Shown: piece after piece, positions 10,202 through 12,181 of the stretch
How positions within the stretch are numbered: the stretch's first letter is position 1
Layout: each line of letters starts with the position of its first letter
Virus genome (UHGV): UHGV-1672213
DNA length: 12,748 nt
Reading direction: 5' to 3' (one strand)
From: a virus
Notes under the pieces: model-generated
Told to the model about the DNA's origin: nothing
Databases searched by the model: none
Seen by the model: the letters and a program-made list of their open reading frames with translations, nothing else
Program-made: the position numbers and the translations under genes

Positions 10202-10505
10202 TTTTCACCCCTGTCAGTCGTTCCCAGAAGTACGTCAGTGCAACCGAACCCATCGCACCACTAATCCCCGCTGTCGCGAGAATCATGTAAATACTGAATC
10301 CACTTTCGATGCTGATCAGGCCACCAATAACACCGGTGAATCCTGATACCACTATCTGAGCCAGAGCATTTATCCAACTCCACGTTGCTTTACTCTGCTT
10401 CACATCTATCAGGTAGCGGACCAGACCGCCCCAACCTGCGATGATCAGCAAAACGAGCCAGAACGCTCCGGCAAGGCTCTCTTTTTCGTGCATATGAATA
10501 GCCAA
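10188..10505 (-). CDS. Putative holin (3 predicted TM helices), not lambda S-like
   Basis: Immediately upstream of R; 101-105 aa with three hydrophobic segments and a charged C-terminus. Start ambiguous: TTG at 10503-10505 or ATG at 10491-10493, neither with a strong SD. Confidence 0.7.
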   Translation of the reverse strand: MAIHMHEKESLAGAFWLVLLIIAGWGGLVRYLIDVKQSKATWSWINALAQIVVSGFTGVIGGLISIESGFSIYMILATAGISGAMGSVALTYFWERLTGVKNAKS

Positions 10506-10534
10506 TGTTTCGCCGCCGACAAAAGGCCGGGACG

Positions 10535-11032
10535 TTAAATGTCAGAAATCAGACTCACGGGGTAATTTAACGACAAAGCACGGAGTTGAAGATCCCCACA
10601 AGCCTGGAATAAAAAAGCCAGCGACAGGCTGGCAATGTGAGGGTAACGCAAAGTGCTTAGAAACAAAAAAAGGCCGCCATCGGCGACCTTCGAGGTATCT
10701 AGCGTGCTGGATACTTTCAGCTTCGCCTTCAATTCAGCGTTGATTTCTTTCAGGCGATCAACATCGTTTTTAAGTTTTTCAATGTCTTGCCCTTTATTAT
10801 CAAGGTCGCGCTGAAGACCTTTAATAATTTCTGTTTGGGCCGCCTGTACTTCTCGTGTCGTCTGGAGAGACTTATCAATATCATCAACTTGGTTAATCAA
10901 GCGTGTACCGAAAAAGCCTACAACTAACATAGTTATCCCAACCATAAAGTTGAGAACCCAGACTTTTGTTCCGGAAGCAGTGTTTGGAGTTTCGTCGATA
11001 AAGTGCACCTTATGCCAGTTAAAGTTACCCAA
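10535..11032 (-). CDS. Hypothetical membrane-anchored coiled-coil protein; boundaries doubtful
   Basis: N-terminal TM (VWVLNFMVGITMLVVGFFG) followed by a heptad-rich stretch (DIEKLKNDVDRLKEINAELKAKLK). The only in-frame starts are TTG at 11030-11032 or GTG eight codons later, without a clear SD, and the frame reads through two intrinsic terminator hairpins. Confidence 0.3.
   Translation of the reverse strand: MGNFNWHKVHFIDETPNTASGTKVWVLNFMVGITMLVVGFFGTRLINQVDDIDKSLQTTREVQAAQTEIIKGLQRDLDNKGQDIEKLKNDVDRLKEINAELKAKLKVSSTLDTSKVADGGLFLFLSTLRYPHIASLSLAFLFQACGDLQLRALSLNYPVSLISDI
10609..10633 (-). terminator. Intrinsic terminator (distal of a tandem pair upstream of the holin)
   Basis: Minus-strand stem GCCAGC/GCTGGC with 5-nt loop, followed by UUUUUU (plus-strand A run 10611-10616). 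Confidence 0.55.
10662..10688 (-). terminator. Intrinsic terminator (proximal of the tandem pair)
   Basis: Minus-strand stem GGUCGCC/GGCGGCC (7 bp, one G-U) with 3-nt loop, followed by UUUUUUUG (plus-strand A run 10664-10670). Confidence 0.55.
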
Positions 11033-11120
11033 CGTCTGCGCAGATCGTTAGATTCGGCAACATTGTAACTGGATAAGGAATAGAAAACCTTGGAATTTTA
11101 AGAAGAAACTGATTGATCGA

Positions 11121-11210
11121 TTATTTAACGAGCGAACACATCCATACACCCCAGACGGGTACTACGACAAAGGCCATGAAATAAGTAACTTTTGCTTGAA
11201 TGTTTTGCAT
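11121..11210 (-). CDS. Candidate small hydrophobic peptide (29 aa)
   Basis: ATG at 11208-11210 preceded by SD AAGGAAG; translation MQNIQAKVTYFMAFVVVPVWGVWMCSLVK has a single hydrophobic helix and a C-terminal Lys; stop TAA at 11121-11123. Below the ORF-track size cutoff. Confidence 0.35.
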   Translation of the reverse strand: MQNIQAKVTYFMAFVVVPVWGVWMCSLVK

Positions 11211-11395
11211 TTCGCTTCCTTAGCAGTCCGATAAGTACTGTCTGCTCATCCAACCTAACGAATGTAGATCAGAATGACAAGTCTTTCGCGCTAATTTCAA
11301 TTTGATATCTCTTCGTAAACATGATGGCGCGAAATATTACGCATGAAGTGCTTCTACATCAACATAAAAGTTACTTTTTTTGTGTTCACAGCATG

Positions 11396-11425
11396 TAAAG
11401 TAAAAGCCCCGCACGATGGCGAGGC
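11396..11425 (-). terminator. tR'-like intrinsic terminator downstream of the Q gene
   Basis: Minus-strand stem GCCUCGC/GCGGGGC (7 bp, one G-U) with 6-nt loop, followed by UUUUACUUUA. Confidence 0.55.
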
Positions 11426-11479
11426 TGTTAATTCTTTGTCGACCAACAAAGCTATGGCGACGATATCAGATTTACATGA

Positions 11480-11508
11480 AATATAAGCGTTTCAGTTCGG
11501 TTTTGCAA
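11480..11508 (-). promoter_or_regulatory. PR'-like sigma70 late promoter (putative Q engagement region)
   Basis: Minus strand: -35 TTGCAA (11503-11508), 17-nt spacer, -10 TATATT (11480-11485). The -35 overlaps the last Q codons; the predicted start is about 50-75 nt upstream of the tR'-like terminator, matching lambdoid PR'-qut-tR' layout. Confidence 0.45.
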
Positions 11509-12181
11509 GACTTACGTGCAAACTTGTCGCCTTTTGTTGTGAACGTGATCGCGTTACTGAGATAAGCGCACCGCTATCGAGTCGCATAAAGCAGCTACGC
11601 ATTGCCAACCAGTGAGGCAGGTATGTCTCTGTCCAGGTGGATTTCGCCACGCCAACCAGTTCCGCCAGCTTCTGGTATTCGTAGGCATCTTTCCCGACCA
11701 ACCCTGCTTTGACATCCTGCGCTGCCAGCCATATCAGCTTCTTCAGGCGCTCCATGGTCTTGCCTGCCACCCTCTTCGCGCCGAGATACCCCCTGAATTC
11801 AGACCACGCCCACTGGGTGATCGCCACCTGGTATTCAAAGCTGATGTTTTCACTGTAACTCCACAGCAACCACGCTTTCTGATGTTCTTCGAGAGACAGA
11901 ACCGCGCGGCGCCATGAAGATGTTGAGAACTCAACCTGGCTGACCAGTGCAATGGATGAACCTTTTGCGTACGACTGCTTACCGGAAATCGGCGGATTAT
12001 CCAGCGTAATCATCTTGCCCGTTACCTCATCCAGAATGCGCGGCTTCTTTCGTTTATATGTACCAGTATCAAATTGTGCATGCTCCAGCCAGGCTTCAAG
12101 CTGGCCTTTCGTTGCTCCGCTCAAATCAGCAGTAGCCACAATGAGTTGCTCGCGGACATACTGTAAATATTGGGTATTCAT
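11492..12181 (-). CDS. Putative late-gene antiterminator Q (non-lambda type)
   Basis: 229 aa; ATG overlaps the ylcG stop; sits between rusA-ylcG and the lysis genes, the canonical Q position, and is followed by a promoter and terminator. Sequence family not confirmed. Confidence 0.65.
   Translation of the reverse strand: MNTQYLQYVREQLIVATADLSGATKGQLEAWLEHAQFDTGTYKRKKPRILDEVTGKMITLDNPPISGKQSYAKGSSIALVSQVEFSTSSWRRAVLSLEEHQKAWLLWSYSENISFEYQVAITQWAWSEFRGYLGAKRVAGKTMERLKKLIWLAAQDVKAGLVGKDAYEYQKLAELVGVAKSTWTETYLPHWLAMRSCFMRLDSGALISVTRSRSQQKATSLHVSLAKPN

Follow-up and report, generated by a model that had tools for sequence, protein, structure and literature searches.

Between the antiterminator gene and the lysis genes of the window (the whole 12,748-nucleotide stretch of viral DNA that was analysed) lies a 29-codon ORF on the minus strand, which begins with an ATG at 11210 and ends with a TAA at 11123-11121. 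Its predicted product, MQNIQAKVTYFMAFVVVPVWGVWMCSLVK, starts with a short polar segment, continues as a hydrophobic helix of ~21 residues, and ends in Lys; residues 8-28 have a mean Kyte-Doolittle hydropathy of 1.92, and the sequence is consistent with the single hydrophobic helix proposed in the first-pass annotation of this DNA. That annotation described the ORF correctly, as every signal it named was found at the positions listed below, and it rightly placed the ORF downstream of Q in an AT-rich island: a PF06323 antiterminator gene lies upstream, and the GC content around the ORF is 0.39-0.42 versus 0.53 in the whole window. The ORF was also said to be too short for gene callers; three E. 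coli genomes contain it, and it is annotated in none of them. The features of the region, all on the minus strand, are as follows.

12181-11492, minus strand: gene for the Q antiterminator (PF06323)
11508-11480, minus strand: late-promoter-like site, TTGCAA-17-TATATT
11476-11403, minus strand: isrJ-like stretch of 74 nt (Rfam isrJ RF01393, 64.9 bits, E 2.4e-10)
11426-11405, minus strand: intrinsic terminator, the putative tR'
11334..11362, minus strand: predicted sigma-70-type promoter (TTGATG 11362-11357, 17-nt spacer, TAATAT 11339-11334)
11211..11330, minus strand: predicted 5' UTR of about 115 nt, with an inferred start near GCGCCAT
11221-11215, minus strand: Shine-Dalgarno (SD) sequence of the microprotein gene, AAGGAAG, 4 nt 5' of the ATG
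11121..11210, minus strand: microprotein gene of 29 codons
11008..11078, minus strand: structured spacer between the two ORFs (RNAalifold)
10535..11008, minus strand: neighbour gene, annotated as hypothetical protein WP_032172870.1 in NZ_CP027437
10665..10691, minus strand: intrinsic terminator of the cassette, GGTCGCCGATGGCGGCC followed by T7
10505-10188, minus strand: gene for a LydA-type holin; the other lysis genes come next in a near-identical E. coli record

Judging from this layout, the stretch 11403-11508 would be the PR'/tR' short late transcript unit of this Q type; it is also suggested that IsrJ, the Hfq-binding small RNA of Salmonella Gifsy-1, is the equivalent of lambda 6S RNA. 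The lysis set of the window is complete, comprising a holin, an endolysin, and Rz/Rz1. A second terminator-like hairpin, GCCAGCCTGTCGCTGGC followed by T6, occurs at 10611-10633 on the minus strand, between the cassette and the holin gene; the DNA with this hairpin is common to many E. coli prophages, where it is unannotated.

On its own, the microprotein ORF is weak evidence for a gene, as 24 ORFs of 20 or more amino acids overlap positions 10400-11600, a region of only 1.2 kb. The window's variant of the promoter agrees with the consensus at 8 of 12 positions and so misses the 9/12 cut-off of the promoter scan, which itself carries a chance expectation of 1.4 sites in the stretch scanned. ORF and promoter, each taken alone, are thus no better than chance; it is their conservation in diverged loci that lifts both above it.

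Conservation of the ORF and its promoter

Homologous loci were gathered by way of the neighbour protein only, and the small ORF therefore had no part in their retrieval. All 37 loci retrieved by the neighbour gene alone have the same small ORF upstream. Scans with the neighbour yielded two Raoultella genomes and 34 viral contigs, and in 36 of these 36 loci the small ORF lies 104-144 nt 5' of the neighbour; loci from Klebsiella, Kosakonia, Enterobacter, and Salmonella were found by a neighbour-protein search combined with contig look-ups. The plasmid collection contained a single record with the cassette, from Enterobacter ECL404. The copy on an Enterobacter phage-like plasmid is 74.5% identical in DNA sequence and has a 29-codon ORF in the same place, with the same SD and stop codon, whose product shares 15 of 29 residues with that of the window. 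The deepest neighbour homologue (P0022, at locus L098; full HMMER search, E 3.7e-17) is likewise preceded by a small ORF, here encoding 30 amino acids, MLNRIQPVVIYATTFLVLPIWGAWLISLTY.

The reverse search, in which a degenerate DNA motif of the 3' end of the ORF was run against the viral and metagenome collections, gave 23 and 17 true copies, respectively, and the neighbour gene was present beside every small-ORF match that could be tested. In the sequences compared, the microprotein ORF is thus never alone, and by its predicted layout is always the first of two genes in an accessory cassette. This constant pairing, which makes the ORF the first cistron of a mobile two-gene cassette, was missed in the first-pass annotation.

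The distinct versions number 24 for the ORF nucleotide sequence alone, 28 once 30 nt on either side are added, and 16 for the peptide. Frameshifts or stops in homologous loci had been named in advance as the observation that would speak against the ORF; none of the 28 distinct versions contains an indel or a stop, and the frame, the 29-codon length, and the position of the stop codon are kept in every one. Across the alignment of 35 unique cassettes, the ORF is free of indels while both of its flanks are full of them, and the flanks are ~3 times more variable per site than the ORF. The comparison of synonymous with non-synonymous changes across related prophages, also proposed at the outset, proved strongly indicative of coding: by Fitch parsimony on a neighbour-joining tree, changes at codon positions 1, 2, and 3 numbered 39, 10, and 92, and 123 codon changes correspond to only 45 amino-acid changes, giving at least 78 synonymous codon changes. 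The pooled Nei-Gojobori pN/pS is 0.34, and dN/dS is ~0.25; between the window and the Kosakonia ORF, there are 13 synonymous and two non-synonymous differences. Of the other five frames, four run into stops in every sequence pair and the fifth does so in 108 of 153 pairs. Eleven residues are invariant (M1, Q5, Y10, F14, P18, W20, G21, W23, S26, L27, and K29).

The start codon is ATG in eight of the 28 distinct versions and TTG in the other 20. The SD that had been proposed for the ORF is not only present but has a core, CTAAGGA, that is kept in nearly all cassettes at a fixed spacing upstream of the ATG or TTG; one cassette has CTAAGGG. The coding signature is seen separately in codons 2-11 and in codons 12-29, and because both halves of the ORF show it, codon 1 is taken as the start of translation. 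These grounds speak against an internal start at Met12, which was rejected; in addition, one lineage has Leu at position 12. On this comparative evidence, the 29-codon ORF is a real protein-coding gene under purifying selection.

Of the promoter-like sites on either strand, only the one at 11334..11362 is common to all 35 unique cassettes. Most relatives have TTGATA-16-TATAAT at this place, nearer to the consensus than the window's own version, while the spacer sequence varies freely; the conserved hexamers would thus represent a phylogenetic footprint of the cassette's own predicted promoter. The first-pass annotation had proposed that this promoter drives the ORF independently of Q: its coordinates were exact and its conservation is complete, even if the 8/12 match of the window version falls short of the scan cut-off. 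Conservation of the cassette starts at the -35 element, and the left edge of the cassette is therefore the promoter itself. At L098, tandem direct repeats (ggttctagat x4 and aaaacgatact x~2.5, at positions 2160-2235) are found upstream of the small ORF, in place of the conserved promoter block, and may constitute a different regulatory region.

The block GCGCCAT (11330-11324), near the presumed transcript start, is invariant in the 35 aligned cassettes. The hairpins near the 5' end of the UTR differ between lineages, and a 4-bp stem lies just 5' of the SD; the consensus fold of the cassettes contains almost no shared 5' UTR structure. The centroid fold leaves the SD of the microprotein gene free, and the minimum-energy fold pairs part of it. 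Against shuffled sequence, the transcript as a whole shows no excess stability (z = +0.54); a riboswitch-like leader was considered and dropped on account of this value and the scarcity of a shared fold. On the opposite strand, no promoter-like site between -260 and +200 occurs in more than 11 of the 35 cassettes, a survey that a weak or unusual promoter could escape.

The neighbour gene, the spacer, and the terminator

The neighbour protein consists of a short N-terminus, a single membrane helix, and a coiled coil of ~70 residues; AlphaFold predicts core residues 10-109 to be one continuous helix (mean pLDDT 77.7). Its conserved part stops at ...KVADGGLF, and the tails beyond are unrelated between lineages. 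The family is small, with 17 clusters at E <=1e-10 among 1.84 billion representatives.

In the spacer, the SD region of the neighbour gene, UAACUGGCAUAAGG (11021-11008), is paired with CCUUAUCCAGUUA (11078-11066); the anti-SD arm that pairs to this region is CCUUAUCC(AGUUA), and the outer stem so formed encloses the hairpin CUAACGAUCUGCGCAGACGUUGGGU (11051-11027). In the inner hairpin, both sides have changed at four of nine pairs, and pairing extends to 99% of cells; the figure for the outer stem is 90%, but most positions there are invariant. The outer stem is found in both the minimum-energy and the centroid single-sequence folds, and L098 has the same spacer layout with a different sequence. 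A conserved TTA.AAT block between the ORFs was examined as a second -10 element and rejected; it has no conserved -35 element, and is better explained as an arm of the SD-masking stem.

For the neighbour, the candidate start codons are the GTG at 11008 used in RefSeq, an ATC at 10999, and the TTG at 11032 of the ORF listing. An invariant TAAGG (within 10986-11021 of the window) lies upstream of the neighbour's conserved TAT(A/C)GA, and is read in different frames between lineages owing to a 1-nt indel; 7-10 nt after it comes a conserved ATA or ATC, in frame with the conserved coding region. The neighbour may therefore start at AUA or AUC, 7-10 nt past its SD.

The intrinsic terminator is kept in all cassettes, with differing stem sequences. 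In the window, the neighbour ORF runs through it and reaches an in-frame stop only 127 nt later, and in all distinct cassettes of the main clade with a traceable frame the neighbour stop is 7-165 nt past the T-run; the terminator hairpin and T-run themselves encode ...KVADGGLF or PPSGGFF (L002, L003, L007, L009, L015, and others). Without a stop codon before the terminator, transcripts ending there would be non-stop mRNAs. The neighbour of L098 has a normal stop before its terminator, and the stop-less feature is thus derived and not universal. The most unusual points about this gene are its masked start and a frame that stays open through the terminator.

Neither the microprotein nor the neighbour gave a significant match to Pfam, NCBIfam, PHROGs, or PADLOC, the scans yielding either coiled-coil noise or no match. 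The best PHROG values were E 0.014 and 0.044, to two different families of unknown function. Sub-threshold matches of the neighbour are to Rz-like spanins (phrog_739, E 5e-4), LysB, and DivIC. A collection of 15 billion predicted proteins lacks the window's peptide and includes two related versions, labelled only "hypothetical protein", in metagenomic Caudoviricetes records. The microprotein family is one previously unnamed, of kinds that are already established, namely the hydrophobic microprotein and the moron. Three further proteins (P0030-P0032, from L099, L100, and L101) resemble the neighbour weakly in HMMER searches (E about 5e-4); they share a motif, GFF..R..N.(V/I)D, at the end of the membrane helix, and are encoded in tightly packed phage operons near endolysin, peptidoglycan-binding, or amidase genes. 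They may be distant lysis-related relatives or coiled-coil noise, and were set aside as too uncertain to be used as homologues; their operons have no space for an upstream small ORF.

The cassette as an accessory unit

The cassette of ~700 bp, made up of the promoter, the microprotein gene, the membrane-helix/coiled-coil gene, and the terminator, is situated between Q/tR' and the lysis genes. Its flanks are matched in 883 of 5,426 complete E. coli genomes, and the insert is present in only three. Its GC content is 0.415 versus 0.529 for the window. At least four types of Q precede the cassette (PF06323, PF06530, DUF1133-type, and lambda-Q-like), and the holins that follow it belong to PF16083, PF04971, PF05106, or PF16931+PF05449. 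A search of 50,697 deposited phage genomes, at both the DNA and protein levels, did not find the cassette. In silico, then, it has the traits by which a moron is recognised: a predicted promoter of its own, its own terminator, insertion between otherwise adjacent genes, and an atypical GC content. Accordingly classed by sequence, the cassette is best regarded as a putative mobile accessory unit, or moron, in lambdoid prophages of Enterobacteriaceae.

An N6/N4 DNA methyltransferase gene is found between the cassette and the holin gene at three loci (L007, 2885-3967; L008, 1613-2680; L098, 3088-4128). These intervening genes indicate that the Q-lysis junction accumulates several accessory units.

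Possible roles and comparison with known systems

The reading that we favour, and hold with moderate confidence, is that the ORF is a true gene, translated into a 29-residue protein that crosses the inner membrane once and, as the first cistron of a ~700-bp moron, acts with its neighbour. The cassette promoter would produce a transcript in lysogens, whether constitutive or regulated. In the established scheme of lambdoid late-gene regulation, Q-modified polymerase transcribes past tR', and as the cassette lies just downstream of tR', such polymerase should transcribe it too; read-through from Q would then add to cassette transcription during lytic growth. The peptide is expected to insert as a single helix, with the invariant Y10, F14, P18, W20-G21, W23, and S26 forming a contact surface, and to act with or on the co-encoded membrane protein. 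Its role might be an exclusion-type or other lysogenic-conversion function in the envelope rather than that of a core lysis gene, but since no family of known function matches, the biological role is a guess. The SD of the neighbour is apparently sequestered and its start is perhaps not AUG, so the two proteins may not be made together or in equimolar amounts, and unequal or separate production weakens a simple complex model. Their constant co-occurrence could instead reflect the shared inheritance of a small cassette and not a physical interaction.

The same features of the neighbour gene can be read in another way, which we think improbable: antitermination could make the cassette a switch of expression, giving the microprotein alone in the lysogen and the microprotein plus its partner after induction. 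In the lysogen, the transcript would end at the cassette terminator and only the microprotein would be made efficiently, the partner's ribosome-binding site (RBS) being masked and its start possibly AUA or AUC; in most lineages, any partner would come from a non-stop mRNA, and the product would be tagged for degradation. After induction, Q-modified polymerase would pass the terminator, the stop codon would be restored, and the partner would accumulate.

A contribution to lysis itself is likewise doubtful. The peptide and a spanin-like or FtsB-like neighbour could form a lysis or envelope accessory of the late operon, which would tune holin timing or block cell division in lytic growth; the cassette lies directly 5' of the holin gene, inside the Q-dependent transcript, and the neighbour combines a membrane helix and a coiled coil with the sub-threshold spanin, LysB, and DivIC matches. 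However, those matches are no better than coiled-coil noise, the cassette has its own predicted promoter and terminator, and the window is already provided with a holin, an endolysin, and Rz/Rz1. Moreover, several unrelated holin families follow the cassette, and a methyltransferase gene intervenes at L007, L008, and L098; the absence of the cassette from the 50,697 deposited phage genomes marks it as dispensable. Holins and antiholins are typically 60-150 aa long and have a charged C-terminal domain; the microprotein, at 29 aa, has a single C-terminal Lys and no association with one holin type.

A resemblance to small membrane toxins had been pointed out at the first pass, and it lies in size and composition. 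TisB and ZorO also have 29 aa, and a type I toxin of this sort, a membrane-damaging peptide silenced by an antisense RNA and a long 5' UTR, would stabilise the prophage or cause abortive infection. The very hydrophobic 29-aa product, the 5' UTR of about 115-145 nt with its hairpins, and the location in a mobile element would all suit such a toxin. Against this reading, no promoter-like site on the opposite strand is common to more than 11 of the 35 cassettes, and without a conserved antisense promoter a type I toxin-antitoxin system is not supported; as conservation starts at the -35 element, there is no room for a divergent RNA gene; and the consensus fold places only the adjoining 4-bp helix by the SD, which is open in the centroid fold and in part paired at minimum energy. 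A near-consensus promoter and a strong SD would be hazardous for an unguarded toxin, and a constant second protein gene is not a type I trait. We consider a type I toxin unlikely.

Very unlikely, in our estimate, is a leader peptide or upstream ORF, whose act of translation would control the downstream coiled-coil gene with its masked RBS. The ORF does lie upstream in the same transcript, and a conserved anti-SD pairs with the SD of the neighbour. Leader peptides, however, usually keep just a few regulatory codons, whereas here purifying selection extends over all 29 codons, with eleven invariant residues and a P-x-W-G-x-W core. In addition, the stop codon is ~42 nt 5' of the anti-SD (11078-11066), out of reach of a terminating ribosome, and both the constant length of the peptide and its hydrophobic helix suggest a product of the membrane. 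The earlier alternative of a regulatory peptide, if understood as a purely regulatory leader, therefore fits poorly with selection at the amino-acid level along the whole ORF. Finally, a chance ORF in AT-rich non-coding DNA, conserved because of an RNA or DNA element, can be dismissed as negligibly probable: the 1.2 kb around it do abound in short ORFs (24 with 20 aa or more) and AT-rich sequence favours hydrophobic codons (PMC11188072), but the concentration of changes at third codon positions (39/10/92), the at least 78 synonymous codon changes, and the lack of indels or stops in 28 versions whose flanks are ~3 times more variable per site argue against it.

Returning to the favoured reading of a moron-borne membrane protein, the analysis adds a well-supported microprotein family to the accessory genes of prophages, and overturns no concept. 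It shows cleanly how a gene that callers miss because of its shortness can be recovered by comparing genomes, and the module to which the gene belongs is a compact, two-gene membrane module with unusual translation and termination features.

Among known systems, short RNAs of the PR'-tR' type have been described from the late promoter of Shiga-toxin phage (PMC7547250). The cassette comes directly after such an IsrJ-like element, and the microprotein gene lies downstream with its own predicted promoter. With TisB and ZorO, the microprotein shares its size, a single hydrophobic helix, a long 5' UTR, and a place in horizontally acquired DNA; it differs from them in that a conserved RNA gene, antisense or divergent, was not seen in the cassettes, there is an obligate downstream protein partner, the consensus fold has only a 4-bp stem next to the SD, and the peptide carries the motif IQ..Y...F...P.WG.W..SL.

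The concept of the moron is that of an independent promoter-gene-terminator unit in a phage (reviewed in PMC3594210). Lambda bor and lom and HK97 gp15 are examples in lambdoid prophages. Like these, the cassette is an AT-rich insert that has a predicted promoter and a terminator of its own and separates genes which related phages have side by side; it has spread among phages that differ in Q and holin type, and its products are predicted envelope proteins. Unlike them, it has two cistrons, of which the first is just 29 codons long and the second has a masked RBS and, in most lineages, a frame that continues past the terminator of the cassette, and its products are without sequence similarity to any described moron product.

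The small inner-membrane regulators of bacteria include MgrB, AcrZ, MgtS, and the 29-aa SidA of Caulobacter. Compared with regulators of the MgrB type, the microprotein is prophage-borne and rare (3/5,426 complete E. coli genomes). Like these regulators and the conserved intergenic microproteins of Enterobacteriaceae (PMC11188072), it is a single-pass hydrophobic protein that gene callers missed and that is under purifying selection. By analogy with the MgrB type, it would likely bind a larger membrane protein, possibly the one encoded beside it.
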